A stretch of 64,000 nt of DNA from an uncultured Clostridia bacterium (GTDB lineage Bacteria; Bacillota; Clostridia; TANB77; CAG-508): contig CALXZX010000002.1 of the NCBI GenBank assembly GCA_944393375.1, positions 15,487-79,486 on the forward strand, given 5' to 3'. Numbering within the stretch: position 1 is the first letter of the stretch; every line of letters starts with the position of its first letter. Below, one piece after another: positions 5,662-61,484 of this stretch. Made by a program: the position numbers and the translations under genes. Under the pieces are notes generated by a model. The model saw only the letters and a program-made list of their open reading frames with translations. It did no database searches and was not told where the DNA came from.

Positions 5662-5753
5662 AAAAAGGGAAATTGGGGACAGACTCATTTTTCCCTTTTT
5701 TTACATCTCAATTTAAAAAGGGAAAAATGAGTCTGTCCCCAATTTCCCTTTTT
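5662..5753. terminator. Long perfect palindrome between convergent galE and crp/fnr genes (bidirectional terminator, REP-like element)
   Basis: The arm aaagggaaattggggacagactcatttttccc (within 5662-5695) is the exact reverse complement of gggaaaaatgagtctgtccccaatttcccttt (within 5720-5753). A/T runs lie on both outer sides. Confidence 0.75.
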
Positions 5754-8899: not shown

Positions 8900-9421
8900 A
8901 TGAATTATGCAGATATAAAAAGAGTAGATGTAGCAAATGGAGAAGGGGTTAGAGTATCCGTATTTGTCAGTGGATGTAATCATCATTGTAAAGGATGCTT
9001 TAATGAATGTGCATGGGATTTCAATTATGGTAATAAATTTACAGATGAACAAATAGATCAAGTAATTAATTATTTGGACCATGACTATATTTCAGGACTA
9101 TCTCTTTTAGGAGGAGAGCCTTTAGAAAAGCAAAATCAAGAGGGACTTTTACCATTAGTTAAAAAAGTAAAAGAAAAATTTCCTGATAAAAATATATGGT
9201 GTTATACAGGCTTTGATTTTGAAAAAGATGTTGTCGGAAAAATGGCTCCTAATAATGAAACCACAAAAGAGCTTTTAAAATATATAGATGTAGTGGTAGA
9301 TGGTAAATTTGAAGAAGATAAAAAGGATTTAAGTCTTAGATTTAGAGGTTCTTCAAATCAAAGAATATTAGATGTTCAAGAAAGTTTGAAAGAGCATAGG
9401 CCAGTAGATTTTAAATTATGA
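8900..9421 (+). CDS. nrdG: Anaerobic RNR activating protein (radical SAM)
   Basis: The start is moved from the track ORF start (8831) to the ATG at 8900, which follows AGAGGGAG. N-terminus is MNYADIKRVDVANGEGVRVS. Radical-SAM cluster CNHHCKGC. Confidence 0.9.
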   Translation: MNYADIKRVDVANGEGVRVSVFVSGCNHHCKGCFNECAWDFNYGNKFTDEQIDQVINYLDHDYISGLSLLGGEPLEKQNQEGLLPLVKKVKEKFPDKNIWCYTGFDFEKDVVGKMAPNNETTKELLKYIDVVVDGKFEEDKKDLSLRFRGSSNQRILDVQESLKEHRPVDFKL

Positions 9422-9553
9422 TCAATTGGGACGTTTCTGTTTGAGAGATTTTAAAAGTTCATACAGGAATGTTCTATGTTTATAGGGTTACAATAGATAT
9501 GTTACACTAAAAGTAAAAAAATAAAAATAGGATAACACAAGATATATAGTATA

Positions 9554-9577
9554 AGGACTACTTTTGAAAGTAGTCCT
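9554..9577. terminator. Hairpin downstream of gatD (possible terminator)
   Basis: aggactacttt / aaagtagtcct inverted repeat. No clear U-tract on either strand. Confidence 0.4.
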
Positions 9578-9584
9578 ATTATAT

Positions 9585-10334
9585 TTATTTAGCTATATTT
9601 AAAAATCTATCTAATAATTGTTTTCTACATAAATTTTCAAATTCATCATTTAAAGGCTCTAACATAATATCTTCTTGATATTTTCTATGTAGACAATGTT
9701 TAATGATATAATCTGTTAGTTCTGGATTTTTAGAAAGAAGGGGACCATGTAAATAGGTAGCAATCACATTTTCTTTAAAAAATCCTTCCTCTGTATCACC
9801 AAATTTATTTCCATTTCCAAATAAAACTTTTCCGAAAGGAGTGGGGATGTCATAGGTTTGTCCACCATGATTTTCAAAGCCAATAACTTTTGAATCTTTA
9901 CCATTTAAATTAACATTAAGGACAATATTTCCAATACATCTCTTTTTTCTATCGCTAATGGCTTCTGTATAATATGGAAATATTTCTAAACCAGGAATGA
10001 TATTTCCTTCAACACCTTTATAATATTTACCAAATAATTGGTAGGCTCCACAAATTAGTAAAAAGAATACACCTTCATTTTCAGCTTCTTTAATTTCTTC
10101 TTTGTATTTGATTAAATCTTCTGATAAAATACTTTGCTCATTATCAGCTCCACCACCTGCAAAGATGATATCATAACTTTTAAAATCAGGTTTTTCATCA
10201 CCAATAGAATATCTATCAACAATACAGTTAAATCCACGTTTTTCAAGTCTATATTTTAATACTTGTATATTTCCATAATCACCATATAATTCTAACATAT
10301 CAGGGTATAGGTATAGTATTTTTAATTCTTTCAT
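9585..10334 (-). CDS. gatD: Lipid II isoglutaminyl synthase, glutaminase subunit (CobQ-type GATase)
   Basis: 249 aa. Type-1 GATase with nucleophile Cys in LLICGAYQLFG and a His-containing YLHGPLL. Lies immediately downstream of murT, separated by 11 nt. Confidence 0.85.
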   Translation of the reverse strand: MKELKILYLYPDMLELYGDYGNIQVLKYRLEKRGFNCIVDRYSIGDEKPDFKSYDIIFAGGGADNEQSILSEDLIKYKEEIKEAENEGVFFLLICGAYQLFGKYYKGVEGNIIPGLEIFPYYTEAISDRKKRCIGNIVLNVNLNGKDSKVIGFENHGGQTYDIPTPFGKVLFGNGNKFGDTEEGFFKENVIATYLHGPLLSKNPELTDYIIKHCLHRKYQEDIMLEPLNDEFENLCRKQLLDRFLNIAK

Positions 10335-10345
10335 GATTGATCTCC

Positions 10346-11662
10346 TTATTTTAATTTTAAAATTTCTGTTCTAGTAGGTTGTAAAGAAGTATAATTTGCA
10401 ATAACATATTTTTTAGTTGTATTAGTATATAAAGCCTTTATGGCTTGTTCTAAGTCTAGATAAGCTTCAATTTTATTTGCATCAAATCCGGATGTTTTTA
10501 TTCTAATGGCAATATCGTAACCCCTTGTTCCTGCAGTTACAATTCTTTTTACATTATTTAAATTATCAAAATTAATATCCCAAATCCAAGAGACATCAAA
10601 TCCATCTGCCTTATTATCATTTAAAACAAATAATAATTCTTTTTCTTCATCATCTTCATTTAATAATCGTAAACTGACATTGGCACCAGTTGGATTTTTA
10701 GCTAAGTTTATAATCGTAGGGGCATCTTTAATGACTAATTTTTCTAATCTACCATTATTTAATTCAAAATTTGCTAAAGCTTCTTGCATATATTTTGTAT
10801 CAATATTGTATAAAGAACAACAGCTAATAACAGCAGTGAAATTGTAAATAATATAGATACTATTTGATTTAATTTTATACAAAATATCATCAACTTCAAA
10901 AGTCATTTCATCTAAATTAATATTTTTTGTTTCTTTATAAATTTCATTATCACCATATTCACAATTAGGACAAGTAAACTTTCCAATGTGAGAATATTGA
11001 TAATATTCATATTCCAAACGTGTCTTACAAAATGGACAGAATTTTCCTTCTCCAGCTTCTTTCATATCATCTGTTGCATAAGGATATCTATCAACATGGA
11101 AATAATAGACATTTTTATTATTTGGATTTGCCATTCCTAATCTTGCAACATTAGGGTCATCATTATTTAAAATTAAATTGCCTGTATATGTTTTTAGAAA
11201 ATCATTGATTTTCAAAATTAAGGATTCTACTTCACCATTTCTATCTAATTGGTCTCTAAAGAAATCCAAGATAACCAAAGTATCTAATCGAAAATCTTTA
11301 AATACAACTGGTACATAACCTTCGTCTACTTCGAAAACTAAATAATCAGATTTAACCTTTCCTGTTAAAGTACAGGATTTTAATAAAGTAGAAAGAATAC
11401 CAGTTTCCATATTATTTCCTTCTTTATTACTAATTACCTTTTTTCCAGCAGTTTGAAAAACATATCCGATAGCATTATTTGTCATAGTTTTTCCATTTGT
11501 TGCTGTAACAGCGATAACAGGGCAGTTTACTTTGAAGTATTTAAAAATTTCTGGATTCCAATCAAAAGCAATTTTTCCTAAAAAATTACCTCCATGTTTT
11601 CCAAATAGTTTTAATACAATATTTAATACCTTCATTGCAAGTACAATAAAAAAGTTTTTCAT
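10346..11662 (-). CDS. murT: Lipid II isoglutaminyl synthase, Mur-ligase-like subunit
   Basis: Mur ligase P-loop VTATNGKTMT, Cys4 ribbon CPFC...CPNC typical of MurT, and a DUF1727-like C-terminus. Operon partner of gatD. Confidence 0.88.
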   Translation of the reverse strand: MKNFFIVLAMKVLNIVLKLFGKHGGNFLGKIAFDWNPEIFKYFKVNCPVIAVTATNGKTMTNNAIGYVFQTAGKKVISNKEGNNMETGILSTLLKSCTLTGKVKSDYLVFEVDEGYVPVVFKDFRLDTLVILDFFRDQLDRNGEVESLILKINDFLKTYTGNLILNNDDPNVARLGMANPNNKNVYYFHVDRYPYATDDMKEAGEGKFCPFCKTRLEYEYYQYSHIGKFTCPNCEYGDNEIYKETKNINLDEMTFEVDDILYKIKSNSIYIIYNFTAVISCCSLYNIDTKYMQEALANFELNNGRLEKLVIKDAPTIINLAKNPTGANVSLRLLNEDDEEKELLFVLNDNKADGFDVSWIWDINFDNLNNVKRIVTAGTRGYDIAIRIKTSGFDANKIEAYLDLEQAIKALYTNTTKKYVIANYTSLQPTRTEILKLK

Positions 11663-11765
11663 TTGTCATGCTCCCATCTCTATAAAATTTATATTTGCAT
11701 TATAGCACAACAAAGAAAAAAGATAAAGTTTTCTGAATTTAAAACAATAAAAATGAAAAAATCCC

Positions 11766-11960
11766 TAGAGTTTCTTACTCTAAGAATAATTTATATAAAG
11801 ATAATATCAATAAAGTAGTTATATGTCAATAAAAATATTCTTTATTTGTACAACAAATTTTTATATAAAAATGAAAGTTTTTATAATTATAATCTAAAAC
11901 TATAAATCTATAAATGACAATAGTTAGAAAGATATTATCAATTTCTTAGAGTAAGAAACT
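11766..11960. promoter_or_regulatory. Putative invertible promoter (inverton 1) upstream of surface-protein paralog 1
   Basis: IR-L 11769-11786 (agtttcttactctaagaa) is the exact reverse complement of IR-R 11943-11960 (ttcttagagtaagaaact), 18 bp. The enclosed 156 bp carries TTGACA (11829-11824), 17 nt, TATTAT (11806-11801) on the minus strand, facing away from the gene at 12019. Confidence 0.7.
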
Positions 11961-12018
11961 AAAAGAAAATTAAAAATAGTTTCAAAACAAAAGAAAATGC
12001 AGAAAAGAGGGATAAAAA

Positions 12019-13494
12019 ATGAAAAAACACATACAAAAAAGTAAAATGAAAAATCAAAAAGGAATTACATTATTAGTATTAGTTATTACTATAATAATTT
12101 TATTAATCCTAGCAGGAATTACCATAAGTGCGTTAACAGGAGACAATGGAATTATAGAAAATGCAGGAAAGGCAAAAGAAGAAACAGAAATAGCCAATGA
12201 AAAAGAGATAGTAGAAAAGGCAACCGTACAAGCAATGGGGAATAATAAGTATGGAAATATAGAAGAAGATGAATTGCAAAGTGAGTTAGATAAAGAAACA
12301 GGAGAAGGGAAAACAGATGCAACAGATATAGGAAATGAACTTGAAGTAGTATTTATTGATAGTAATCGATATTATGTAGTTGATAAAGATGGAAATGTAG
12401 GAGAAGCACAAGAGATTATAAAAGATAAAAATCCAGGAGATATTACAATAGGAAAAGATGGAGAAACATTAGATGGAAGTGAAGAACATCCATATGAGAT
12501 AAGGTGTATAGAAGATTTAATAGAATGGTCACAACATTATACTAAATATCAGAATAGTAATATTGTCTTATGTAAAGACTTGAATTTTAAATCTTCACTA
12601 TCTTATGCAGATAGTAAAAGTATGGAATATGGAGACATCAATCAAGATAATACAACAGACAGTCTGATTGAGGAGATGCAAAAAGGAATAGGTTTCACAC
12701 CAATAGCAAATTTTTCAGGGATATTTAATGGGAATCATTTTGGAATTCAGAATATTTATATAGTTAATCATGAAAGTGTAGGACTATTTAGTCAAATAGA
12801 TGGAGCTATAATAAGTGATCTAGATATAAGTGGATATATTGAAAGTACAGAAATTACTAGCATTGCTGGTGGAGCTGGTAGCATAGCAGGAAATATAAGT
12901 GAAGGAAGAAATAAAAAAAGTTATATAGAAAATTGTTCAAATAGTGCTACTATAAAAGGTTTTTTAAACCAAAATTATACAGGAATTGGTGGTATAGTAG
13001 GTAAATCTAACGGGGCAGCTAATATAGTAAATTGTAGTAATAGAGGTACAATAATAAGTGAAGTAGGTACAAAAGTTTATATGGGAGAAAACGCAATAGG
13101 TACTGCGGGAATTTTAGGATATACAAGAGGTAATAAGGCTGATGTCAATATATATAACAGTTATAATATAGGAAATGTTTCATCAAATAAATCATCTTGT
13201 GGAATAATGGGAGGTATATGGGCAGAAGGTTCAATTAATATAGAAAATTGTTTTAATATAGGAGAAGCAAAAATAGGGATTTGTAAAAGTGCAAATAGTA
13301 GTAACAGTATTTACTATTTGGATAGTGCAAGTAGCACAGGAGGAATAACAAATGCAGTTCTTATTACAAAAAATGAATTGTGTAGTGAAGAATTTATTAA
13401 TTTATTAAATGATTATATAGAATCAGGAGAAGATTATAAAACTAAATGGAAAAAATGGAAATTAGGAGAAGAAGGATATCCTATAATTGAATAA
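12019..13494 (+). CDS. Surface protein paralog 1: pilin-like N-terminal hydrophobic module plus GLUG-type beta-helix repeats
   Basis: N-terminus KGITLLVLVITIIILLILAGITISALTGDNGII resembles a class III (prepilin) signal but lacks Glu+5. A conserved ~160-aa module ends at PYEIRCIEDL. The C-terminal half has repeated GG(I/L)(V/I)G...N(C/S)xN.G motifs. Confidence 0.85.
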   Translation: MKKHIQKSKMKNQKGITLLVLVITIIILLILAGITISALTGDNGIIENAGKAKEETEIANEKEIVEKATVQAMGNNKYGNIEEDELQSELDKETGEGKTDATDIGNELEVVFIDSNRYYVVDKDGNVGEAQEIIKDKNPGDITIGKDGETLDGSEEHPYEIRCIEDLIEWSQHYTKYQNSNIVLCKDLNFKSSLSYADSKSMEYGDINQDNTTDSLIEEMQKGIGFTPIANFSGIFNGNHFGIQNIYIVNHESVGLFSQIDGAIISDLDISGYIESTEITSIAGGAGSIAGNISEGRNKKSYIENCSNSATIKGFLNQNYTGIGGIVGKSNGAANIVNCSNRGTIISEVGTKVYMGENAIGTAGILGYTRGNKADVNIYNSYNIGNVSSNKSSCGIMGGIWAEGSINIENCFNIGEAKIGICKSANSSNSIYYLDSASSTGGITNAVLITKNELCSEEFINLLNDYIESGEDYKTKWKKWKLGEEGYPIIE

Positions 13495-13613
13495 GTGGGA
13501 GGAGTTTGAATTTATAACTTGAAAAATAAAATAAAAAAATATATAATACAAAAGACAAATATGTGCTGTTTTCTAATCATTATTAAGAAAAATAGATTAA
13601 TGGAGAAGAATAT

Positions 13614-14414
13614 ATGATATATCTAAATAATGAAAAAAAGATAAATAAATTAAGAGAAAAAATGAATAAAAGTAATATCTATATATTTATGGATTATGAT
13701 AAAACAATTACCTCAAATAAAAGTGAAGATTCATGGGATACTATTGCTAATAGAAAAGTAATGGGAGAAGAACTTGCAAATGGTTTAAATGGATATTATC
13801 AAAAATATGGTCCTATAGAATTAGATTATACTATAAATATAGAAGAAAAAGAAAAATACATAATTGAATGGTATCAAAAATGTATGGAATTATATTATAC
13901 ATATCATCTTACGAAAGAAAAATTAAAACAATGTATTGATAATAGTAATTTAGAATTAAGAAATGGTGTAAAAGATTTTCTTTTTAAGTTATATAAAAAT
14001 AATATACCAGTTATTATATTGTCAGCAGGAATTGGAAATGTGATAGAACAATTTTTGAAAAAGGAAGAATGTTTTTATGATAACATGACAATAATTAGCA
14101 ATTTTATAAAATTTCATGAAAATGGCAAAATGATAAAATTTTCTGATAATATGACTCATACATTAAATAAAAATATAGATAAATTGGGTGACTTGAAAAT
14201 CAAAGAAGAAATGGAAACAAAGGAATATAGAATTGTAATAGGCGATTTAGTTGAAGATATTAACATGATGGGAAATTATCCAGATAATAAAGCTTTAAAA
14301 ATAGGATTTCTAAATACAAATGTTGCTGAGAATCTAGGAATATATATAAAAAATTTTGATATTGTTCTATCTGAAGACAGTAATTTTTATGATATAGAAA
14401 AATATGTAATTTAA
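13614..14414 (+). CDS. HAD-superfamily pyrimidine 5'-nucleotidase, UMPH-1/NT5C3-like
   Basis: DxDxT motif (MDYDKTIT). IPVIILSAGIGNVIEQF, ISNFIKFHENG, GDLVEDINM and KIGFLN...NFDIVLSEDSNF are colinear with my recollection of human NT5C3 (IPVFIFSAGIGDVLEEV, VSNFMDFDETG, GDSQGDLRM, KIGYLN...SYDIVLVQDESL). Confidence 0.8.
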   Translation: MIYLNNEKKINKLREKMNKSNIYIFMDYDKTITSNKSEDSWDTIANRKVMGEELANGLNGYYQKYGPIELDYTINIEEKEKYIIEWYQKCMELYYTYHLTKEKLKQCIDNSNLELRNGVKDFLFKLYKNNIPVIILSAGIGNVIEQFLKKEECFYDNMTIISNFIKFHENGKMIKFSDNMTHTLNKNIDKLGDLKIKEEMETKEYRIVIGDLVEDINMMGNYPDNKALKIGFLNTNVAENLGIYIKNFDIVLSEDSNFYDIEKYVI

Positions 14415-14429
14415 AAAAAGAAGCAAGGA

Positions 14430-14831
14430 CTATCTATCTATGCCCTTGCTATTTTCTGTACAACTATCATCTTGATAATAAAATCTATCAAGTTCATTTT
14501 TTATCAAATTCCATTGGGCTATACAACTTTTATAATCTAATGGAAGAATAAGTGAAGAAAAAGGATTTTCAAGATATATTCTTTCAAATTTTTCTTTACG
14601 AAGTATTTTCTCGAATCTAGGCAACAAAGGACATATAAAAGTTCCTTCTTCACAGACAAAGAAAAGAGGAGAGCTTTTTATAAAAACCCTTTTTTTAGAA
14701 TGTGCTGGCTTTATAATTTTATTAGGAAATCCAGGAACATAATGAGTCTGCATGCCATCTTCTGGTATTTTGAATGCAAAATTTTTTAAATCTTCTAATG
14801 TATATATATTATAATTTATGTTGTAATGCAT
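14430..14831 (-). CDS. Hypothetical protein
   Basis: The start is placed at the ATG at 14831 (MHYNINYN...), which follows AGAGGTG. The longer track ORF (to 14891) lacks an RBS. No recognisable domain. Confidence 0.5.
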   Translation of the reverse strand: MHYNINYNIYTLEDLKNFAFKIPEDGMQTHYVPGFPNKIIKPAHSKKRVFIKSSPLFFVCEEGTFICPLLPRFEKILRKEKFERIYLENPFSSLILPLDYKSCIAQWNLIKNELDRFYYQDDSCTENSKGIDR

Positions 14832-14994
14832 AATAACACCTCTTACAAATATTAACATAAATAGTATACCACATCTATGCGTTTTTTGCAAAGTTTAATA
14901 TAGAAATAAAAAATATATAAATTTTTATAAAAATAAAGTGGATTTTTTAGATATAAATGATATAATACAAAAGATTACGAAAGGAACTGATAAG

Positions 14995-15507
14995 ATGAAC
15001 ATAGAAGAAATACAAAAAAATAATGATAATAAAGAAATTATATTGCAAGCAGTAAAGGAAAATGGAAAAAATTTAGAATTAGCATCAATACAATTACAAG
15101 ATGATAAAGAAGTGGTTATGGAAGCACTAAAACAAGATGGAGAAGCTTTGGAGTTTGCTAGTAAAAGGTTAAAAGGGGATAAAGAAGTCTTAGAACTAGC
15201 AACTAAAACAGCACCTTGGACAATTTGTTACGCATCAGAGGAACTAGCAGGAGACAAAGAAATTATGCTAGAATGTTGTAAACATTATGGACAAGCTCTA
15301 TATTATGCATCTGAAGAATTACGAGATGATAGAGAAGTGGTAAAGGCAGCAGTAGAAAATAAAGGGATTATTATTAAATATGCTAGTAAACGATTAATTG
15401 ATGATAAAGAATTAGCACAAATTGCTGTTAAACAAAATAAACAAGCTTATCATTTTATATCAAATAAATTGAAACAAGATGAAGATATTAAAAAGTTAAT
15501 GGAATAG
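14995..15507 (+). CDS. DUF4116 repeat protein
   Basis: About five tandem ~30-aa repeats of the AVKxNGxALEyASxxLkdDKEvvl type. ATG at 14995 after AAAGGA is preferred over the GTG at 14938. Confidence 0.65.
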   Translation: MNIEEIQKNNDNKEIILQAVKENGKNLELASIQLQDDKEVVMEALKQDGEALEFASKRLKGDKEVLELATKTAPWTICYASEELAGDKEIMLECCKHYGQALYYASEELRDDREVVKAAVENKGIIIKYASKRLIDDKELAQIAVKQNKQAYHFISNKLKQDEDIKKLME

Positions 15508-16176: not shown

Positions 16177-16182
16177 TATCAA

Positions 16183-16250
16183 ATTAGGGACGTTTCTGTT
16201 TGGACATTTTTTAAATTATTTAAAAATGTCCAAACAGAAACGTCCCTAAT
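16183..16250. terminator. Perfect 29-bp-arm palindrome between convergent yfcE-like and mgtA genes (bidirectional terminator, REP-like element)
   Basis: attagggacgtttctgtttggacattttt (16183-16211) is the exact reverse complement of 16222-16250. Confidence 0.8.
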
Positions 16251-16261
16251 TTTCCTTTTGG

Positions 16262-39817: not shown

Positions 39818-41767
39818 ATGGGACAAAAGAAAAGTAAAAGTTTGTTAATAACAGTTATTGTTTTATTAATTATTATTTTAATTTTAGTAGGCGTTATAGC
39901 ATATTTATATTTTTTCACAGATATGTTTAAAAGTAATAAACAGTTATTTTTCAAATATACTTCACAGATTATGCAAAGTGAAGATGGATTTATAGATAAT
40001 CAGTTAATGCAATATTTTCAAAAAAAGGATAGCACAAGTTATGAAAATAATGGAGAAATAACATTTGATGTATCTATTCCCAATATGGAAGATGATTTAG
40101 AATTGGCTAATCATTTTAATATTACTTTTTCAGGAAAAGAAGATCCTAATAATTCAAAATTAGAAAAAGAGATTAGTCTCAACTATTCAGATAGTGTCAA
40201 TTTTCCATTAACATATAGAAAAACAAATAACATAACAGGAATTCAAACCCAATATATTGGAAGTAGTTTTGTAGCTATTAGAAATGATGAAGAAATTTCT
40301 GGATTAACAGATATAAATAATTTATTAAAATTACAAAATATAGCGTTTTCTAATGAAGAAATACAAAATCTGAAAACAACTTATTTTGATAATATATTAA
40401 ATACATTAGAAGATAGCAAGTTTTCTACATTAACTGAGGGGAATTTAACAGGATATAGATTAACATTAACAGGTGAAGAATTCAAAAATACATTGGTTCA
40501 AATCTTAAATGTATTAAAAACAGATGCTAATACAATGCATAAAATAAACGAGATCTTGCAAGGGATAGGAATCGATACACAATTAAATGAAGATTCTATA
40601 GATACGCTAATAGAAAGTATTAATGATTGGGAATTAAATGATAATATTGAAATGACTGTATATGCCACAGGAGGAAAACTATATAGAGTTGATATAGGAA
40701 CAGCTGGAAATACATTAACAATAAATAGAGAAGGAAACGGTCAAGAAGTAACATATACTATGTCTTTGAATGTGACAGAACAAAATGCAAGTGCAGTATT
40801 TACAGCTAAATATTCTGGATTAAATTCAGATAATGTAACTGAAACATATGAACTAACATTAGAAGGAAAGTATGGAGAAACTAATGTAGTAGAAAAATCA
40901 GATAATACACAAGATACATTAGATATTTCAAGTGAGAGAGAAACAATTGAGTCATTAATGACAACTGTTCAAGCAAATAAAATAGCAGCAGGAGAAGATA
41001 GTACCCAAATCAGTGATACAGATGTAGAAGAAGAATTATCATCAGGAGAAAATGAAATCTATACAGATATGCGTTTAGAAAGAGAAACAGATACAACATT
41101 TAGTATTACATTTGTTAGTACAGGAGACAAATTTGTCATAGATAACACAGGAAAAATTGTTGAAGAACCAGAAGAAACTTCAACAAATGAAACTACAACA
41201 AATGCATCAGAAAATACGACCAGCCATAATACATATAATATGACAAATAATGTACAATTTAAAAATGGAGTACAAATAGAAGATTTAACAGAAGAAAATG
41301 CAGTTATTTTAAATGATAAAGATAATGAATATGTTAGCAATTTGATGAATGCTATACAACAAAGAATGGTAGAAGTCAATCAAGTGCAAATGGAAGAATT
41401 AGGCGTATCAGAAGATCAAAATCCAATTCAATATCTAATACCAGCATTTTTATTAACAAACGGAACAAATGCAGAAATAGATGAACAGGCAGTAAATGCT
41501 TTTAATGCAAAATTTGAACTATATGAAAGTACAAATACAAAAGGAGCAACAGTGAAAGGGTTATTAACAACTATACAAAATAATAATGAGACAGAAGGAA
41601 ATAACAAAATAGAAGAAATCAATATGGATGGCGAAGAATATGAAGTAAATGAACAAAATATTACCTTATTAAAAAGTAGCATTAATGTAGATGACGCATA
41701 CAGGGTAGAATTCGAAAAAGATATTAACACAGGACTAATTTATAGGGCAGTTATTAATAAACGTTAG
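39818..41767 (+). CDS. Hypothetical membrane-anchored protein
   Basis: ATG at 39818 after GGAGG. One N-terminal TM (LLITVIVLLIIILILVGVIAYLYFF), then ~620 aa of N/E/T-rich sequence with no recognised domain. Confidence 0.6.
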   Translation: MGQKKSKSLLITVIVLLIIILILVGVIAYLYFFTDMFKSNKQLFFKYTSQIMQSEDGFIDNQLMQYFQKKDSTSYENNGEITFDVSIPNMEDDLELANHFNITFSGKEDPNNSKLEKEISLNYSDSVNFPLTYRKTNNITGIQTQYIGSSFVAIRNDEEISGLTDINNLLKLQNIAFSNEEIQNLKTTYFDNILNTLEDSKFSTLTEGNLTGYRLTLTGEEFKNTLVQILNVLKTDANTMHKINEILQGIGIDTQLNEDSIDTLIESINDWELNDNIEMTVYATGGKLYRVDIGTAGNTLTINREGNGQEVTYTMSLNVTEQNASAVFTAKYSGLNSDNVTETYELTLEGKYGETNVVEKSDNTQDTLDISSERETIESLMTTVQANKIAAGEDSTQISDTDVEEELSSGENEIYTDMRLERETDTTFSITFVSTGDKFVIDNTGKIVEEPEETSTNETTTNASENTTSHNTYNMTNNVQFKNGVQIEDLTEENAVILNDKDNEYVSNLMNAIQQRMVEVNQVQMEELGVSEDQNPIQYLIPAFLLTNGTNAEIDEQAVNAFNAKFELYESTNTKGATVKGLLTTIQNNNETEGNNKIEEINMDGEEYEVNEQNITLLKSSINVDDAYRVEFEKDINTGLIYRAVINKR

Positions 41768-41845
41768 GGACGTGCCAAATCGTTCAATTTTTGAACGATT
41801 TGACCTGTCCCCAATGTTCAAAAATTGAACGAAAGGGACAGACCT
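41764..41845. repeat. Composite REP-like palindromic element (GGGAC-type) at the 3' end of the 39818 gene
   Basis: gggacgtgcc-aaatcgttcaatttttgaacgattt-gacctgtcccc forms nested inverted repeats. It is followed by a second copy, gttcaaaaattgaac, and by gggacagacc. Confidence 0.55.
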
Positions 41846-46640: not shown

Positions 46641-47312
46641 ATGAAAATAATGAAGGGTTTATTGAAGAAAAATCAGGTAATTATTTATGTTATTGCTCTA
46701 ATGCTAGTGACTGCTGGATATTTAAATTATACTACCAATACGGCAGAACAAGTATCAGCACAGACAGCCATGGAAATGGAGGCAAATGATGATATGCAAA
46801 TTGCTGATATTGGAGATGCTACATTGGTAAGTAGCGAAGCAGTTAATAAAAATGAAGTAGAAGAAAATGCAATAGAAAATACAACAAATGCAACTGCAAA
46901 TATGACACAAAATACCAATACAACGGAAAATAATACAGCAACACAAACAAGTGCAACAGTAACAACAGATGAATATTTTACAAAATCAAAATTAGAAAGA
47001 GATACCATGTATTCACAAATGATAGAAAGTTATGAAAATGTATTAAATAGTAGTAATAGCTTAGAGACGCAAAAACAAAGTGCAACAGAAGAAATTAAAA
47101 AAATTAATGATACAAAAAACAGTATTATGATATGTGAGAACTTAATAAGTACCAAGGGATTTAACAACAATATTATTTTTGTAAATGGAGATAGTATTAG
47201 TGTCATTATTGGAGTAGAACAGTTACAACAAGAAGAAGTGGCACAAATACAAAATATTATTTCTAGAGAATTAAATGCAGAAATTGAAAATATACATATA
47301 TCAACAAAATAG
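46641..47312 (+). CDS. spoIIIAH: Stage III sporulation protein AH
   Basis: The KNQVIIYVIALMLVTAGYLNY anchor and the C-terminal domain (FVNGDSISVII) are typical of SpoIIIAH. Last gene of the operon. Confidence 0.88.
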   Translation: MKIMKGLLKKNQVIIYVIALMLVTAGYLNYTTNTAEQVSAQTAMEMEANDDMQIADIGDATLVSSEAVNKNEVEENAIENTTNATANMTQNTNTTENNTATQTSATVTTDEYFTKSKLERDTMYSQMIESYENVLNSSNSLETQKQSATEEIKKINDTKNSIMICENLISTKGFNNNIIFVNGDSISVIIGVEQLQQEEVAQIQNIISRELNAEIENIHISTK

Positions 47313-47314: not shown

Positions 47315-47360
47315 AAATAGCTTAAGAATATTTTATTTATTGAATATTCTTAAGCTATTT
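47315..47360. terminator. Bidirectional hairpin between convergent spoIIIAH and the XRE gene
   Basis: Perfect 18-bp arms aaatagcttaagaatatt / aatattcttaagctattt. The right arm overlaps the 3' end of the XRE gene. Confidence 0.7.
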
Positions 47361-47556
47361 TATTGGCCATTATTCTTATGTATTCGCCTAATTCTTCATC
47401 CGTTAATTCTAATTCTAAAATTAGGTTTTTCAGAACATCTCGTCTAGGTAAATCTTCTTCATTATCAATTCGTATATATTGTCTTAAGCTAATTCCTAGT
47501 ATTTCAGACATTTTTTCTTGTGTATATTTTTTTGCCTTTCTTTTTTCTTTTATCAT
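47350..47556 (-). CDS. XRE family helix-turn-helix transcriptional regulator (68 aa)
   Basis: The YTQEKMSEILGISLRQYIRIDN HTH is typical of Cro/C1-type regulators. Confidence 0.8.
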   Translation of the reverse strand: MIKEKRKAKKYTQEKMSEILGISLRQYIRIDNEEDLPRRDVLKNLILELELTDEELGEYIRIMANKIA

Positions 47557-47679: not shown

Positions 47680-47874
47680 TTAGAGTTTTTTACTCTAAGA
47701 AAGATTAATATAAGTTAATCATAACAATAAAATAGTGAAATGTCAATAAAATTTAATTGAATAAAATAGTGAATGTTTTAAGGAGAAATAATAAAAATTC
47801 AAAAAATGAAATAGAAGAAAATAAAGTAATATTAATACTTATGGAATTTTCATAATTTCTTAGAGTAAAAAAAT
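47680..47874. promoter_or_regulatory. Putative invertible promoter (inverton 2) upstream of the BspA-LRR paralog
   Basis: IR-L 47686-47702 (ttttttactctaagaaa) is the exact reverse complement of IR-R 47856-47872 (tttcttagagtaaaaaa), 17 bp. The segment carries TTGACA (47746-47741), 17 nt, TATGAT (47723-47718) on the minus strand, facing away from the gene at 47899. Confidence 0.7.
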
Positions 47875-47898: not shown

Positions 47899-50010
47899 AT
47901 GAAAACTAAAGAAAATAGAAAAAATAGGGGAATTACTTTAATTGCCCTAGTTATCACCATTATAGTGTTACTAATTTTAGCAGGAATCACAATAGGAGCG
48001 ATAACAGGAGATAATGGTATTATACAAAATGCATTAAGTGCAAAAGAACAAACAGAAATTGCAAATGAAAGAGAAATTGTAGAAGAAGCAACTGTTCAAG
48101 CCATGGGAAAGAATAAAAGAGGAAACATTGTAAAAGATGAATTGCAAGAAGAATTAGATAAAATAACAGGAGAAGGAAAAACCATTGTAACAGAAGATAA
48201 AGAAGAACTAGGATATTTTGTAAAGTTTGTAGACAGTGGAAGAATCTATAAAGTTAGTATAGATGGAGATGTACAATATTTAGGAAAAGAAAATGAATTA
48301 ATCACACAAGCAGATATTATAGCAAATCCAGAAAGTAATACAACAGCAGAGCTAATACAACAAGTAGATTTAACAGTAAAAACACCAATTGAAATAGAAG
48401 GAGCAGAGTATTCATTAGTATATGCATGGAACCAAGATAAAGAAAATGCACCAGAAGATACAAAATTCTTAGAAACAAACTTAATAGGAGAAGGAAGAAT
48501 CAGAACGACAACGGTATATAGTAGTGATACAGTAGGAGGAGACTATTACTTGTGGGTAAGAATTGTGGTAGGAGATATAGAAAGAGAAGCATGTTTTGGA
48601 CCATATGCAATAAAAGATTATACAACTTTAGTATCTGTTGATTGGAATGGTGGTTTAGCAGAAGGAGGATTTTTAGGAAATAGTGAAGTACCAAGAGGAA
48701 AAATACAAAATATTGATATAATTACATCATTAGAGGGACATAGTGTAGATGATGAAAAAACCTGGGATGTATCAGATGGAAATAAAGGAATGTATTTAGC
48801 ATGGTATGAAGTAAATGAGAATGGATATTATGATGTAACGATTGCAGGAAATGGAGGAATTGTTGCAAATAGTTATTCAACATATTTATTTAAAAATATA
48901 GGTTCTGGTGTGGAAAATCAAGAAGTAACAATAACAGGGTTAGAATATTTAGACACAGGGTTAGTAACGAATATGTATTCAATGTTTGAAAATTGTAAAG
49001 CAGAAGAAATAGATGTGAGCCAATTTAATACAGAAAAAGTTACATCCATGTCATCAATGTTTTCAAGTTGTAGTAATATAGAAAGTTTGAATGTAAGTAA
49101 TTTTAAAACAGAGAATGTAACAAGTATGTATCAGATGTTTGATGGATGTAGTAGTTTAACAGAATTAGATTTAACGAATTTTAATACAAGTAATGTAACG
49201 AATATGGAAGGTATGTTTTTGAACTGTAAAGCAACAAGTATATACTTAAGTGGTTTTGATACAAAAAATGTAGCAAATATGCTAAATATGTTTAATGGTT
49301 GTTCTGTAACAAGCCTGGATGTAAGCCATTTTAACACAAGTAATGTAACAAATATGCAGGGAATGTTTGCTAATTGTAAAGTACAGAGTTTAGATTTAAC
49401 GAGTTTTAATACAAGTAAAGTAACAACTATGTGGACTATGTTTCAAGGGTGTCAAGCAACTAATATTGATGTGAGTAGTTTTGACACGAGTAGTGTATTA
49501 TATATGAGAGAAATGTTTGCATCGTGTAGAGCAACAGATTTAGATTTATCTAATTTTGATACAAGCAATGTAACAAATATGTATAGAATGTTTATGAGTT
49601 GTAGAGCAACAAATATAGATGTAAGCAATTTTGACATAAGTAACGTAACATATACTATGGATGGAATGTTCCGAGATTGTTCAAATTTAGTAAAATTAGA
49701 TGCAAGTAGTTTTACAATGCCCAAAACAACATCTGTAGAGTGGATGTTTGGAGGTTGTCAAAAAATAGAACAAATAGACCTTAAAAATTTTGAGGTAAAG
49801 GAAGGAACCAATATTAATCAGATGTTTTACAACTGCCGAAGTTTAGAAAAATTAGATATTAGAAAATTTGATATAACAAAGACAACTGGATATAGTAATT
49901 ACTGGATATATCCTGTACCAACAACATGTAGTATTATTGTAAATCAAAGCATGAAAGATTGGTTTACAGAAAACCTTCCAAATTATACAAATGTAACAAT
50001 AGGAAATTAG
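47899..50010 (+). CDS. Surface protein paralog 2: pilin-like N-terminal module plus BspA/DUF285-type leucine-rich repeats
   Basis: N-terminus RGITLIALVITIIVLLILAGITIGAITGDNGII is homologous to the other five paralogs. The C-terminal half has about 12 tandem ~24-aa repeats (F(N/D)TSNVTNMxxMFxxCxxxxLDLSN). Confidence 0.88.
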   Translation: MKTKENRKNRGITLIALVITIIVLLILAGITIGAITGDNGIIQNALSAKEQTEIANEREIVEEATVQAMGKNKRGNIVKDELQEELDKITGEGKTIVTEDKEELGYFVKFVDSGRIYKVSIDGDVQYLGKENELITQADIIANPESNTTAELIQQVDLTVKTPIEIEGAEYSLVYAWNQDKENAPEDTKFLETNLIGEGRIRTTTVYSSDTVGGDYYLWVRIVVGDIEREACFGPYAIKDYTTLVSVDWNGGLAEGGFLGNSEVPRGKIQNIDIITSLEGHSVDDEKTWDVSDGNKGMYLAWYEVNENGYYDVTIAGNGGIVANSYSTYLFKNIGSGVENQEVTITGLEYLDTGLVTNMYSMFENCKAEEIDVSQFNTEKVTSMSSMFSSCSNIESLNVSNFKTENVTSMYQMFDGCSSLTELDLTNFNTSNVTNMEGMFLNCKATSIYLSGFDTKNVANMLNMFNGCSVTSLDVSHFNTSNVTNMQGMFANCKVQSLDLTSFNTSKVTTMWTMFQGCQATNIDVSSFDTSSVLYMREMFASCRATDLDLSNFDTSNVTNMYRMFMSCRATNIDVSNFDISNVTYTMDGMFRDCSNLVKLDASSFTMPKTTSVEWMFGGCQKIEQIDLKNFEVKEGTNINQMFYNCRSLEKLDIRKFDITKTTGYSNYWIYPVPTTCSIIVNQSMKDWFTENLPNYTNVTIGN

Positions 50011-50050
50011 AAAAGTTCCATAAATTTAAGATTAGCATAGGAGGAGAAAT

Positions 50051-50668
50051 ATGCCAGAAAAAAAGAAAAAAATAATCATAGGAGCAAGCATAGCAGGAAT
50101 TGTGCTATTGCTTGTCATACTAATCGTTGTAATATCAAATAATAAAAAAGTAGAAGAAAATACAGAAATATTAGAAAATGCAGATTTATCAGAACTAATA
50201 AATGTGGAAAATATAGAAAGTTTACCATATGAAACTGAAGAAACAAAAGAAGAAATATCATCAAAATATATAACAGGAAGAAATAAATATGAGATAAAAG
50301 CAAATGTACAAGCAGGAGAAACAGAAGGAAAGTTAATTTATGCAAGTGGTACACAAAATCTAAACATATATAAAACAGAATATACATTAAACAAATATGA
50401 AGATAAAACAACAAAAGTAAGGAATATTATGCAAGAATTTGAAATGTTGTGTGAAGGATATATGGAAATAACAGAAGATGCATATAAAGAAACAGAGCAG
50501 TTATATGGAGAAAGTAGTGCAGACTTTGAACTACCAGTAGAAGAAAGTATATATACTGAAGGAAGGTTATACAGTAAAACATATAAGAGTGAAGAAAATG
50601 AATATGACATAAATTTTTATAGACAAGACAACAAGATTATATGTGAGTTTGTAAGAGTATATAGATAA
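50051..50668 (+). CDS. Hypothetical membrane-anchored protein
   Basis: GGAGGAG RBS and one N-terminal TM. No recognised domain. Probably cotranscribed with 47899-50010. Confidence 0.55.
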   Translation: MPEKKKKIIIGASIAGIVLLLVILIVVISNNKKVEENTEILENADLSELINVENIESLPYETEETKEEISSKYITGRNKYEIKANVQAGETEGKLIYASGTQNLNIYKTEYTLNKYEDKTTKVRNIMQEFEMLCEGYMEITEDAYKETEQLYGESSADFELPVEESIYTEGRLYSKTYKSEENEYDINFYRQDNKIICEFVRVYR

Positions 50669-54117: not shown

Positions 54118-54888
54118 ATGTTATTAGAAGGTAAAAAAGTAGTAATTATGGGAGTAAGAAACAAATGGAGTATTGCATGGGGAGCAACACAATCAGCTTA
54201 TGAACAAGGAGCAGAAGTTATTTGTACTTGTTCAGCAGATAGTGTAGATAAAGTAAAAGATTTAGTAAAAGATATGCCAAGAGCAAGTGTTTATGTATGT
54301 AATGATGTAAGTAAAGATGAAGATATAGATAAATGCTTAGAAGAAATAAAAAATGATCATGGAAAAATCGATGGATTATTACATGCCATTGCACATGCTA
54401 ACACAGAAGATTTAAGAAATGATTTCATTTTAACATCAAGAGATGGTTATGCACATGCACAAGATGTAAGTGCTTATTCATTAGTTGCTATTGTTAGAAT
54501 GGCAAGAGAAAAAGAAATGTTAAATGAAGGAGCAAGCATTGTTGCATATACATATTATGGATCAGAAAAAGCAATTGAAGGATACAATGTTATGGGAGTT
54601 GCTAAAGCAGCATTAGAAGCAAGCATTAGATATTTGGCAAGAGATTTAGGAAAAGATGGATATAGAATTAATGGAATTTCAGCAGGACCAATCAAAACAT
54701 TATCAGCTAAAGGAATTAAAGACTTTGGTTCAATATTAGATATTGTTGAAGAAAGAGCACCATTACATAAAAATGTTACTATCAATCAAGTTGGAAATGC
54801 TACTGCATTTTTATTTAGTGATATGTCAAGTGCCATTACTGGAGAAATTATTCATGTAGATAATGGTTTCTCAACTGTTGGTGTATAA
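54118..54888 (+). CDS. fabI: Enoyl-[acyl-carrier-protein] reductase (NADH), FabI type
   Basis: GGGAGG RBS. GKK.VIMGV.N..SIAWG start. Catalytic Y-x6-K (YNVMGVAKAAL). 256 aa. Confidence 0.92.
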   Translation: MLLEGKKVVIMGVRNKWSIAWGATQSAYEQGAEVICTCSADSVDKVKDLVKDMPRASVYVCNDVSKDEDIDKCLEEIKNDHGKIDGLLHAIAHANTEDLRNDFILTSRDGYAHAQDVSAYSLVAIVRMAREKEMLNEGASIVAYTYYGSEKAIEGYNVMGVAKAALEASIRYLARDLGKDGYRINGISAGPIKTLSAKGIKDFGSILDIVEERAPLHKNVTINQVGNATAFLFSDMSSAITGEIIHVDNGFSTVGV

Positions 54889-55019
54889 TCTATATATGAA
54901 TGCTATTTGAGAATTTAATAATTTTGATGATTCTAATAGAAAAATTACTTTATATCGAAAAGGTATAGAGTAATTTTTGCTTTTATGATAAAATAAGAAA
55001 AAACTTAGGAGAAAAAGAA

Positions 55020-55439
55020 ATGGTATTATTAAAAATATTAGCAGGATTAATTATTTATATATTGATTTGTGTAATAATTGGATTGATCAAATTTAAAGAA
55101 AAGCCAAAAAAATATATCATGTCAACATTGTCTATGATATTTAATGGCTTTATGGGATTTATGGATACCATATTTTTTATATTATTTTATATGTTTTTTT
55201 CAAATCAACCTAAAGGAAGTGCATATTATGTACCAGAAAGTGAAGAAAGTTTAAATGCAATGATAGGAATGTTTCTTTTAATTGTATATTTGTTAATATT
55301 ACTACCGATTAATATATATATGAAACGAAAAGGAAAAATTAGCACAAAAGTATATATAATAATGAGTGTATTGGCAACATTAGTGGGATTAGGAATTTAT
55401 TGGATTTGGATAGGAACACAATTTACCAAAATATTTTAA
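55020..55439 (+). CDS. Hypothetical small membrane protein
   Basis: Four hydrophobic segments and an AGGAG RBS. No family recognised. Confidence 0.55.
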   Translation: MVLLKILAGLIIYILICVIIGLIKFKEKPKKYIMSTLSMIFNGFMGFMDTIFFILFYMFFSNQPKGSAYYVPESEESLNAMIGMFLLIVYLLILLPINIYMKRKGKISTKVYIIMSVLATLVGLGIYWIWIGTQFTKIF

Positions 55440-55460
55440 TAAAAAACAACTAAAAAAAGT

Positions 55461-55654
55461 CCTAGAGTTAAGTACTCTAGAACTTTTTTAATACCTTGAT
55501 TATACCAATAAATATAATAGATATCAACAAAAAATAGAAAATAAAATGACAAAATTTATTAATTGGAAAATAGAAAATAAAAAAGAACAAAGACAGTAAA
55601 AAGGCTAAATAATGCATAAAATCCAACTTTCTATATTTCTTAGAGTACTTAACT
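55461..55654. promoter_or_regulatory. Putative invertible promoter (inverton 3)
   Basis: IR-L core 55466-55479 (agttaagtactcta) is the exact reverse complement of IR-R 55641-55654 (tagagtacttaact), 14 bp. The flanking GAA/TTC extends it with a 1-nt bulge. The segment carries TTGATA (55527-55522), 17 nt, TATAAT (55504-55499) on the minus strand. Confidence 0.65.
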
Positions 55655-55683
55655 AAAAGAAAGTATAGAAGGGAGAAGATAAA

Positions 55684-57219
55684 ATGCAAAAGATAAGGAA
55701 AGAACAGGGAATTACATTATTAGCATTAGTAATTACTATTATTATATTATTAATCTTAGCAGGAATCACAATAAGTGCTATTACAGGGGACAATGGAATC
55801 ATAGGAAATGCAGGACAAGCAAAAGAGGAAACAGAGATTGCCAATGAAAAAGAAATTATAGAAAAAGCGACTGTACAAGCAATGGGAAATAATAAATATG
55901 GGAACATAGAAGAAAGTGAATTACAAGAACAATTAGATAAAGAAACAGGAGAAGAAAAAACAGAAGTATTAAATGTCGAAGATGAATTTGAAGTTGTATT
56001 TCATGAAAGTAACAGATATTATACAGTAGATAAAGATGGAAATGTACAAGGTGCCTATGAAATCATAGAAGATAAATATCCGGGAGATATTACTGTTGGA
56101 AAAGATGGAGAAACATTATATGGAAGTGAAGAAAAACCATATGAAATCTGGTGTATAGAAGATTTAATGGAATGGTCTAAAAACTATAGTCAATATATGA
56201 ACGCATATATAAAGTTATGTACTAATTTAAACTTTAAATCAGAATTATCATATGCAAATAGTGAAACAAAAGACTATGGAGATGTGAATCAAGATGGAAA
56301 TACAGATAGTTTAATAAAAGAATTACAAAGTAGAGAAGGATTTAAAGCAATACAACAATTTTCAGGTAATTTTGATGGTGATGAAAATATAATCAGTAAT
56401 TTATATATTTCTAAACAGGACAATGCAGGTCTCATCTTATCTTTAAATAATGCTAATTTCAAGAATATTACAATAAAAGGAGAAATATATAGCCAAAGTA
56501 ATAATGCCGGAATTATTTCTCAAGGAGGAAATAGTCAAATTGAAAATATTATAAGTGATGTTAAGATATATGGTGGCGTAGCAGCAGGAATAATAGGAAG
56601 ATGTACAGCTCAATTAAACATAAAGGATTGCGTGAACTTGGGAAATATAGAATCAACGTCAGCAGTAGGTGGAGTTTGTGGAGACCAGTTTACAGGAGAA
56701 ATGTTAAATTGTATAAATGAAGGAACAATAAAATCTAGCGCAAGTGGAAATTATGGTGTAGGAGGATTATGTGGAAATACTGGCAGTAATAATACAGAAA
56801 GTACACAAATAAAAAATTGTATAAATAGTGGAACAATTATATATGATGGAAATAAAAGTGTATGGTATTTTGGTGGAGCAGGTGGAATAACAGGATTAAA
56901 TCGACAAACATTGATTATACAAAACTGTGTGAATACAGGAAAAATACAATCTACCTCTTATGTAGGTGCTATATGTGGAATGGATCTTATATATTGGCAA
57001 AGCCAAGAAACATATGAATTAACCAATTCATTCATGTTAGATAATGTGGAGAGAGTAACAGGAAGTAATAATGCAGAAACAGAAATTACAGTATTTAAAA
57101 TCGAAGATGTTCTAGATGTAGCTACAAGTTTAAATCAATATATAAATAATAATAAATTAACAGAACAAGGTTGGAAATTATGGAAAATAGAAAATGATAA
57201 TAAATTAACATTAGAATAA
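55684..57219 (+). CDS. Surface protein paralog 3: pilin-like N-terminal module plus GLUG-type beta-helix repeats
   Basis: GGGAGAAG RBS. MQKIRKEQGITLLALVITIIILLILAGITISAITGDNGIIGNAG start. Constant module runs to PYEIWCIEDL (55684-56166). C-terminal GG(V/L)CG/AGGITG repeats. Confidence 0.88.
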   Translation: MQKIRKEQGITLLALVITIIILLILAGITISAITGDNGIIGNAGQAKEETEIANEKEIIEKATVQAMGNNKYGNIEESELQEQLDKETGEEKTEVLNVEDEFEVVFHESNRYYTVDKDGNVQGAYEIIEDKYPGDITVGKDGETLYGSEEKPYEIWCIEDLMEWSKNYSQYMNAYIKLCTNLNFKSELSYANSETKDYGDVNQDGNTDSLIKELQSREGFKAIQQFSGNFDGDENIISNLYISKQDNAGLILSLNNANFKNITIKGEIYSQSNNAGIISQGGNSQIENIISDVKIYGGVAAGIIGRCTAQLNIKDCVNLGNIESTSAVGGVCGDQFTGEMLNCINEGTIKSSASGNYGVGGLCGNTGSNNTESTQIKNCINSGTIIYDGNKSVWYFGGAGGITGLNRQTLIIQNCVNTGKIQSTSYVGAICGMDLIYWQSQETYELTNSFMLDNVERVTGSNNAETEITVFKIEDVLDVATSLNQYINNNKLTEQGWKLWKIENDNKLTLE

Positions 57220-57242
57220 AATATATAAAAAATAAAAATAAA

Positions 57243-57445
57243 TTCATTGAGTTAGATACTCAATGAATTTTTTACTAAAAAGATTATACCATAATTGTAA
57301 AGAAAATCAAGCATTTAAAAAGATATTTAATATAATAATTAGTAATTAAAAAAGTAATAAAATAAAATGAAAAGGTAGTTAAAAATGCACATATTTTCAT
57401 AAAAAAAGTCCTTTTTAATTTTCATTAAGTATCTAACTTAATGAA
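57243..57445. promoter_or_regulatory. Putative invertible promoter (inverton 4)
   Basis: The reverse complement of IR-L 57243-57267 (ttcattgagttagatactcaatgaa) matches IR-R 57421-57445 (ttcattaagtatctaacttaatgaa) at 23/25 positions. The loop sequences ttagata and tatctaa are mutual reverse complements. The segment carries TTGATT (57310-57305), 16 nt, TATAAT (57288-57283) on the minus strand. Confidence 0.7.
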
Positions 57446-57464
57446 AAAGAAAGGGGCAAGAAAA

Positions 57465-59066: not shown

Positions 59067-59074
59067 AAAAATAT

Positions 59075-59276
59075 CGTTAAGTTAATTACTTAACGATTGA
59101 AAACTAAATATATAATACCAATAAAAAATAGTAAAGTCAATAGATAAGGAGAGATATACAAGAAAAGAAAAATAGAATAGAAAACAACAAAAAATGAAAA
59201 GCAGAAATGATTTGTTTTATAGTAAAATCAAATCATTCCTGCTTTTTTATATATACCTTAAGTAATTAACTAAAAG
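59075..59276. promoter_or_regulatory. Putative invertible promoter (inverton 5)
   Basis: The reverse complement of IR-L 59075-59095 (cgttaagttaattacttaacg) matches IR-R 59256-59276 (ccttaagtaattaactaaaag) at 18/21, with a perfect 14-bp core. The segment carries TTGACT (59140-59135), 17 nt, TATTAT (59117-59112) on the minus strand. An internal plus-strand terminator lies at 59201-59248. Confidence 0.7.
59201..59248 (+). terminator. Intrinsic terminator inside inverton 5, just upstream of IR-R
   Basis: gcagaaatgattt / aaatcattcctgc, a 13-bp stem with one mismatch, followed by TTTTTT. Confidence 0.65.
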
Positions 59277-59331
59277 AAAATGAAAAAATGATGAAATACA
59301 TGAGAAAATAAAAAGAAAAGAGGTATAACGT

Positions 59332-60987: not shown

Positions 60988-61054
60988 TCATAAAGTTAAA
61001 ATTTAAATTACTCAATAGAAAATATATTTGTTAAATTAATGAATTAAATATTGC

Positions 61055-61469: not shown

Positions 61470-61484
61470 GAAAGGAGAAGATAA

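Follow-up and report, generated by a model that had tools for sequence, protein, structure and literature searches.

The contig CALXZX010000002.1 of an uncultured Clostridia bacterium (assembly GCA_944393375.1) contains, in a stretch of 64,000 nt (positions 15,487 to 79,486) referred to here as the window, a short DNA segment bounded by inverted repeats (IRs) between the murT-gatD genes and a divergently oriented gene at 12019 encoding a 491-aa protein. This site, designated locus 1, is, with a probability that we put at about 80%, a functional invertible promoter that is held mostly OFF, i.e. pointing away from the gene that it would serve. It is a member of a family of homologous switches that inverts, including switch #5 of the same organism. 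The hosts of these switches are uncultured low-GC gut Clostridia, a lineage found in chicken and other gut metagenomes. The components of locus 1, in window coordinates, are the following.

11751..11787, minus strand: terminator-like element that the OFF-state promoter would meet, consisting of an 11-bp stem (two G.U pairs) and an AAGAA loop, followed by UUUUUUCAUUUUU
11762..11786, no strand: putative gene-distal recombination site, the palindrome TCCCTAGAGT-TTCTT-ACTCTAAGAA (outer arm, 5-nt spacer, inner arm), the last 18 nt of which are the left repeat (IR-L)
11787..11942, no strand: putative invertible segment of 156 bp; in other family members, homologous segments are found in either orientation between their flanks
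11801..11829, minus strand: predicted sigma-70-type promoter, with -35 TTGACA (11829-11824), a 17-nt spacer, TG (11809-11808) and -10 TATTAT (11806-11801)
11943..11967, no strand: putative gene-proximal recombination site, TTCTTAGAGT-AAGAA-ACTAAAAGAA, the first 18 nt of which are the right repeat (IR-R)
11961..12018, plus strand: fixed leader with the ribosome-binding site (RBS) GAGGG (12007-12011) 7 nt before the ATG, nearly invariant among orthologs
12019..13494, plus strand: target gene, 491 aa, with a pilin-like N-terminal hydrophobic helix (KG followed by ITLLVLVITIIILLILAG), a conserved domain (about 125 aa) and, at the C-terminus, a predicted GLUG-type beta-helix

An earlier note on this DNA had described an exact 18-bp repeat bracketing 156 bp, and both the sequence and a repeat finder bear this out: IR-L (AGTTTCTTACTCTAAGAA, 11769-11786) and its counterpart at 11943-11960 are 100% complementary over 18 nt and lie 156 nt apart. 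Exact 18-nt inverted repeats spaced by 20-300 nt appeared in one of 200 order-1 Markov simulations of the window (0.005 per simulated sequence). The target gene starts 58 nt beyond IR-R. The outer arm of the proximal site is degenerate, so that its sense strand forms no strong hairpin, and it is not followed by a U-run. No promoter-like site was found in the fixed leader 11961-12018 by a consensus scan of 11600-12100, and an Rfam search of 9000-15000 with E-values up to 1 returned no match.

The top-scoring site of the same scan is the minus-strand TTGACA-17-TATTAT motif at 11829..11801, as the note had proposed; it matches 11 of the 12 consensus positions and carries the additional TG. The promoter was said to be assembled OFF, and in the window it does face away from gene 12019, towards the hairpin and T-run at the left repeat, with a predicted transcription start near 11794, about 8 nt before the hairpin. 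Once inverted, it would lie at 11900-11928 on the plus strand, start transcription near 11935 and give an 84-nt 5' untranslated region. The distance of about 8 nt to IR-R that had been given for the inverted state holds for this predicted start, whereas the -10 hexamer would end 14 nt away. The ON junctions predicted for locus 1 would be ACTCTAAGAA joined to ATTGATAATATC and TATATAAATTA joined to TTCTTAGAGT or, in longer form, ...TTACTCTAAGAA joined to ATTGATAATATCTTTCTAAC... and ...GATATTATCTTTATATAAATTA joined to TTCTTAGAGTAAGAAACT.... The same promoter motif is present at the same distance from an inverted repeat in all members of the family.

On the strand read by this promoter, the left repeat lies within a hairpin (11787..11761) of 11 pairs, including two G.U pairs, which is followed by TTTTTCATTT; the T-run had been correctly noticed, while the stem is longer than the 6 bp originally quoted. 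It is the single terminator-like site in the region scanned, where shuffled sequences give an expectation of 0.0, and RNA folding assigns it -12.5 kcal/mol (z -3.3). The proposal that the OFF transcript would be terminated here finds support in a comparison of 29 non-redundant switches. Their distal antisense hairpins average -14.0 kcal/mol, and at least five U residues occur in the 8-nt tail in 18 of the 29, while additional distal elements qualify by eye where the stem itself runs into the U-run. On the sense strand of the gene-proximal site the mean is -7.2 kcal/mol, and none of the 29 has a U tail. The distal site is a near-perfect palindrome that is always preceded by an A-run on the gene strand, which yields a hairpin and then a U-run on the strand read by the OFF promoter. 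Among 18 distal palindromes, the positions departing from Watson–Crick pairing are C/A on the sense strand, and thus G.U on the antisense, in 11 cases, versus one case of the reverse; this bias would fit a role of the antisense transcript at the RNA level, although it is suggestive only, as many of the palindromes share ancestry. The murT promoter is situated past the hairpin, so that murT-gatD would be protected by this element from transcriptional interference; in tandem arrays the distal hairpin would likewise shield the upstream paralog.

That such segments invert is seen in assemblies of the family. When the switches are oriented by their genes, 27-28 are OFF, with the promoter at the gene-distal site and pointing away, and five are assembled ON, namely L005 and L014 (the same locus in two species), L048, L057 and L071 (L numbers designate the stretches compared). 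In all five, exactly as inversion predicts, the promoter-proximal site adjoins the leader and RBS, and the flank with the A-run and hairpin is found on the far side. Two stretches from one metagenome, L043 and L048, share an inner segment of 168 nt that is 100% identical and lies in opposite orientations next to a gene-side flank that is the same in both; the end of L048, exactly 55 nt outside the segment, is the signature of a de Bruijn branch at k=55. Their distal flanks differ beyond about 45 nt, and the pair may represent two strains or two paralogous loci. In L033 the same distal flank occurs on both sides, an assembly signature of mixed orientation.

The same organism provides a further case. 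L094 (sample ERZ24773480) shares 99.8% identity with window 59258-64000, and its positions 1-83 are the reverse complement of window 59074-59156, joined to IR-R (59258-59277) of switch #5. This switch is therefore ON in L094, where TTGACT-17-TATTAT reads through IR-R into gene 59332, while it is OFF in its five other assemblies (the window, L092, L093, L095 and L096). Because the repeat is at most 20 nt long, assembly at k=55 cannot create the L094 junction without reads that span it.

These assemblies also bear on a static regulatory region, in which the palindromic sites would be operators for a dimeric protein acting by looping or repression, and the minus-strand promoter would make a short attenuated or antisense RNA with no inversion at all. 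Each site is indeed a 10-5-10 palindrome, as operators often are, and a small helix-turn-helix (HTH) gene adjoins switch #2. However, operators do not explain why homologous segments occur in both orientations between unchanged flanks, in the same organism included, nor why asymmetric spacers are inverted between the two sites of every switch, a feature needed for recombination and not for operator binding. This explanation is very unlikely.

Locus 1 itself was compared in 25 assemblies from four species, the copies returned by exact-protein look-ups with the 491-aa product and its cluster members. The window, L001, L097, L098 and L099 represent the same species in five samples, L011 and L075-L091 are 18 assemblies of a sister species whose product is 88% identical, and L003 and L012 are orthologs from two more species. 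In the latter two the switch is 80-97% identical to that of the window and murT is 96% identical. Across the four species both inverted repeats, the -35 and the -10 are invariant, and the segment centre and the first transcribed bases diverge.

Several points weigh against a working switch at this locus. No ON copy was found among the 25 assemblies, all of which are OFF (five of the same species, 18 of the sister species and two others). A recombinase gene was found neither in the 64-kb window (Pfam on 20 open reading frames (ORFs), the other ORFs by eye), nor in the flanking DNA (about 10 kb on the left, about 5 kb on the right), nor, by motif search, in the roughly 35 family loci. The segment contains two further, weaker promoter-like sites that are not conserved (plus 11860-11887 and minus 11914-11886) and could give some orientation-independent transcription. 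The promoter and the terminator are consensus predictions, and the family tally depends in part on the motif-based choice of its members. As to further copies of locus 1, the metagenome pattern scan revealed no ortholog and the genome-contig scan no ON copy, while look-ups by murT (which was not on record) and by the UMPH-1 neighbour (where contigs break inside the gene) added none.

Accordingly, locus 1 might be a relic locked OFF, for example through loss of the recombinase, or might flip too rarely to matter, with other members of the family active. The uniform orientation of its 25 assemblies, its position apart from the paralog arrays and the lack of a recombinase gene nearby all speak for such a relic. 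Its repeats are nevertheless exact, and they and the promoter are invariant in four species while neighbouring positions of the segment diverge. A promoter permanently facing a terminator should decay, so this conservation argues that the switch is alive, and gene 12019 is intact in all copies. Moreover, the contigs are consensus sequences that report the majority orientation and leave minority orientations invisible, so that the all-OFF set shows a strong OFF bias, not immobility. Overall, a relic is unlikely. All structural elements of the model in the earlier note, namely the two IRs, an internal promoter facing outward, the hairpin with its T-run at the gene-distal repeat, a murT promoter of its own and a target gene 58 nt past IR-R, are present and are conserved in the family of more than 30 switches, which supports that interpretation. 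The designation as an inverton thus stands for the family, in which inversion is seen, and extends with good confidence to locus 1, OFF in every assembly. The anatomy and its conservation are observed, as is inversion in family members, one of them in the same organism, whereas we infer inversion at locus 1, activity of its promoter and terminator, the identity and class of the recombinase and a surface role of the protein.

Six switch units are present in the window, in the DNA read ahead of each paralog, and a seventh lies about 4 kb to the left of its start.

11766-11960: switch of locus 1
47680-47874: switch #2
55461-55657: switch #3
57237-57452: switch #4
59074-59277: switch #5
62418-62619: switch #6
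L101 6334-6545: seventh switch

The five other window switches and that of L101 each precede a pilin-like paralog, and all are assembled OFF. The repeat of locus 1 itself recurs in the window with 1-3 mismatches at 47684-47874 and 55637-55654. The arm sequences vary among the other switches of the organism (TCTTAGAGT, CATTGAGT, CGTTAAGT), with the AGT-N5-ACT core and the distal palindrome kept. Scanning one genome per species for the pattern gave 18 further stretches in six metagenome-assembled genomes of uncultured Clostridia/Eubacteriales, several per genome, and a scan of metagenomes added about 18 more switches, after about two thirds of its pattern matches had been discarded as chance or other repeats. 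In more than 30 homologous switches the unit always lies 47-150 nt upstream of a gene of the GITL(I/L)ALVITII... type. The order of its parts is an A-run, a 10-5-10 palindromic site, about 15 nt inward of which is a minus-strand TTGAC(A/T)-17-TAnnAT promoter with TGn, then about 100 nt of variable DNA, the inverted second site, and the leader and RBS of the gene (...KG ITL(L/I)ALVITIIVLLILAG...).

Such short, multi-copy units bounded by inverted repeats could resemble MITE-like mobile elements, which would carry terminal inverted repeats and an outward promoter and would have spread through the genome. The copies, however, always have one position and one polarity with respect to genes of a single family, and the segments diverge along with their genes, with 60-80% identity among paralogs. 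The distal A-run/hairpin flank and the leader are also fixed parts of the unit, and no target-site duplications were found around the repeats by reading the sequence. A mobile element is thus a highly improbable source of locus 1.

The switch units appear to be scattered among housekeeping genes, and locus 1 stands apart from the paralog arrays. Switch #2, its PARCEL/DUF285 gene and a 205-aa ORF (47899-50668) are inserted between spoIIIAH (46641-47312) and accC (50812). A 68-aa HTH_3/XRE-type gene on the minus strand (47350-47553) lies between spoIIIAH and this switch, behind the hairpin, where the OFF promoter of switch #2 points. In L101, the seventh switch and its DUF285 gene are located between nrnA and truB. 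Between paralogs #5 and #6, at 61485-62369, is a gene for a PD-(D/E)XK 'PDDEXK_2' protein (Rpn-family recombination-promoting nuclease / putative transposase). Relative to window 54188-61437, L093 and L095 show a deletion, so that the body of paralog #4 (57441) is fused to the switch and N-terminal region of paralog #3 (55684). The fusion looks like the product of homologous recombination in the conserved stretch of about 125 aa at the N-terminus. Members with long leaders of about 190 nt form a subfamily (L101 6583-6611, L043 and L027); downstream of the switch they have another promoter-like site, TTGACT-17-TA(A/G)AAT, which is fixed, would complicate a simple ON/OFF reading of these members and is absent from locus 1. 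Near-perfect palindromes with arms of 34-39 nt and GGGAC(A/G) are found at gene ends (5662-5753, 16181-16252 and 41753-41825); they look like a repeated terminator or REP-like element, and a similar motif is present in the L048 flank.

The recombination sites, aligned on the invariant AGT-N5-ACT core, have the consensus tTCcTAGAGT-N5-ACTCTAaGAa at the distal and TTCtTAgAGT-N5-ACTnaAAGAA at the proximal end. Each switch has an asymmetric 5-nt spacer, identical at its two sites and inverted from one to the other; among 21 switches 15 different spacers occur, and the six of the window are TTCTT, TTTTT, TAAGT, TAGAT, TAATT and CAGAT. Identity within a switch together with diversity between switches is what a recombinase that requires homology at the crossover would select. 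Such private spacers would also suppress recombination between switches. Sites of a serine invertase of the Hin type were considered, and their 2-bp core appears to fit the odd 5-nt spacer less well. Since the dyad passes through the middle base of the spacer, a tyrosine recombinase with a 7-bp overlap (T-N5-A) would be the better fit, as judged from the site alone. The enzyme is presumably encoded elsewhere and acts in trans, as is the case with RecV or Mpi.

In the proposed mechanism, locus 1 would be an invertible promoter of the fimS type whose OFF state has its own built-in terminator. A site-specific recombinase encoded in trans would exchange strands in the AGT-TTCTT-ACT cores and flip the 156-bp segment. 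In the OFF orientation the internal promoter would fire away from gene 12019, and its transcript would meet the hairpin and U-run of the distal site about 8 nt past the predicted start, ending before it could enter the murT-gatD promoter region in antisense; the putative surface-protein gene would remain silent. In the ON orientation the transcript would cross the proximal site, with its weak hairpin and no U-run, and continue through the 84-nt leader into gene 12019. This organism has at least seven of these switches, each with its own 5-nt spacer and each before a different pilin-like beta-helix or PARCEL-repeat paralog, so that cells could display different combinations of proteins.

In Escherichia coli, the 314-bp fimS element with its 9-bp inverted repeats is inverted by the tyrosine recombinases FimB and FimE, whose genes adjoin the switch, and governs type 1 fimbriae. 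As an IR-bounded segment it carries the promoter of the adjacent surface-appendage gene, which is ON in one orientation and OFF in the other (PMC2784873). Locus 1 is likewise a short IR-bounded segment with a promoter for the adjacent gene. Unlike fimS, it comprises 156 bp and has 18-bp repeats within 25-bp palindromic sites, there is no adjacent recombinase gene, many switches occur per genome, and the hairpin of the distal site faces the OFF promoter.

The cwpV switch of Clostridioides difficile has 21-bp repeats around 195 bp, located 57 bp before the ATG, and a stem-loop of the left repeat followed by poly-U gives the OFF state; its recombinase, RecV, is encoded elsewhere and serves several switches (PMC2784873). 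Locus 1 is similar in its Clostridia host, its putative surface-protein target, its geometry (18 bp, 156 bp and 58 bp, respectively) and the left-repeat stem-loop with poly-U. However, the cwpV promoter lies outside the switch and its terminator of the sense transcript forms only in the OFF orientation, whereas at locus 1 the promoter is inside the segment and the predicted terminator is a fixed antisense feature that would handle the OFF-state transcript alone. A cwpV-like mechanism was considered for locus 1 and rejected: the stretch from murT to IR-L has no plus-strand promoter-like site, the promoter lies inside the segment, and the hairpin and U-run are antisense and in the fixed flank. 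About 5% of C. difficile cells have cwpV ON, and the published genome of the species shows the OFF orientation (PMC2784873), so that the all-OFF consensus assemblies of locus 1 are unremarkable. The many promoter switches per genome located before alternative surface structures are also a feature of Bacteroides and other gut invertons reported in PhaseFinder-type surveys. In the capsular polysaccharide loci of Bacteroides, multiple invertible promoters are served in trans by the global invertase Mpi, and most of them are OFF at any time. The present family differs from these in its AGT-N5-ACT core, the Firmicutes sigma-A-like promoter, the pilin-like beta-helix and PARCEL-repeat targets and the uncultured low-GC Clostridia hosts. 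Groups of Clostridia invertons linked to tyrosine recombinases have been reported in inverton surveys (PMC11892184; PMC11602134). No paper linking GLUG or DUF285 proteins to invertons was found in the literature set consulted, which is incomplete.

While promoter inversion is a known mechanism, the use of the recombination site as a strand-specific terminator and the private spacers are possibly distinctive. These two features may together allow one recombinase acting in trans to flip a dozen or more switches independently and leave the chromosome unscrambled. That they define a distinct design variant among invertons is a tentative proposal, to which we give slightly less than even odds.

The product of gene 12019 has no Pfam or NCBIfam match, but more than 1800 unnamed homologs, some of them with PF07581 (Glug). 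This family is also matched by the paralog at 57441-59066, and the paralogs bear either GLUG or PARCEL/DUF285 repeats. A weak match (E 0.07) links the N-terminus to geopilin, in the region of the class III signal and helix. A leader, Gly and a hydrophobic helix are present; position +1 is Ile instead of Phe (or Met), position +5 is Val or Ala instead of Glu, and Pfam N_methyl, seen in paralog #2 alone, is below the cut-off (18.2 versus 21.2 bits). On these grounds the product resembles a pilin at its N-terminus, with membership among type IV pilins or pseudopilins unsupported. An AlphaFold2 model (37 homologs, pLDDT 86, pTM 0.82) consists of long N-terminal helices, a small beta domain and a beta-helix. 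Its best fold match in the Protein Data Bank (PDB) is 3n6z (E 2e-7, TMt 0.65), a Bacteroides ovatus domain labelled 'putative IgA1 protease', and the IgA1 protease of Streptococcus pneumoniae is also among the best PDB matches. The picture is that of a surface protein that is anchored to the membrane or a pilus and whose outer domain can be exchanged. In L003 and L012 the product encoded at the murT-adjacent position is 43% identical to the 491-aa protein, compared with 96% for murT, suggesting that the cargo behind the conserved switch evolves fast or has been replaced. The contigs L073 and L074 end inside the conserved N-terminal region of the gene.

The divergent neighbours of locus 1 were identified as murT and gatD by Pfam, in accordance with the earlier assignment.

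9585-10334, minus strand: gatD (Pfam)
10346..11662, minus strand: murT, divergent neighbour outside the switch (Pfam MurT_C, Mur_ligase_M)
11699..11707, minus strand: extended -10 TGCTATAAT of the presumed murT-gatD promoter, outside the switch and downstream of the hairpin, kept in L011 and L075-L090

That murT has an extended -10 promoter of its own downstream of the hairpin agrees with a reading of the sequence, in which this element is present at 11707..11699, 37 nt before the murT ATG at 11662. Its -35 (TTTATC) is poor, which is why the scan did not list it. The spacer between murT and the switch (window 11663-11768) is polymorphic relative to L001, L098 and L003. In some strains or species it contains an extra segment of about 700 nt carrying a 98-aa ORF on the minus strand, and the change in sequence falls right at the A-run that precedes the distal site.

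Phase variation of surface proteins affects how bacteria colonise, evade immunity and resist phages. Locus 1 points to a multi-switch system in this lineage of uncultured low-GC gut Clostridia. The site-terminator coupling and the private spacers provide testable design rules for multi-locus switches, and the exact junction sequences allow orientation to be scored in existing read sets. The switches also flag sites at which assemblies break or misjoin. The more than 1800 unnamed proteins would be the output family of such switches. If the proposed design variant of the inverton is real, it would control a large, fast-evolving and wholly uncharacterised family of pilin-anchored beta-helix and PARCEL-repeat surface proteins.

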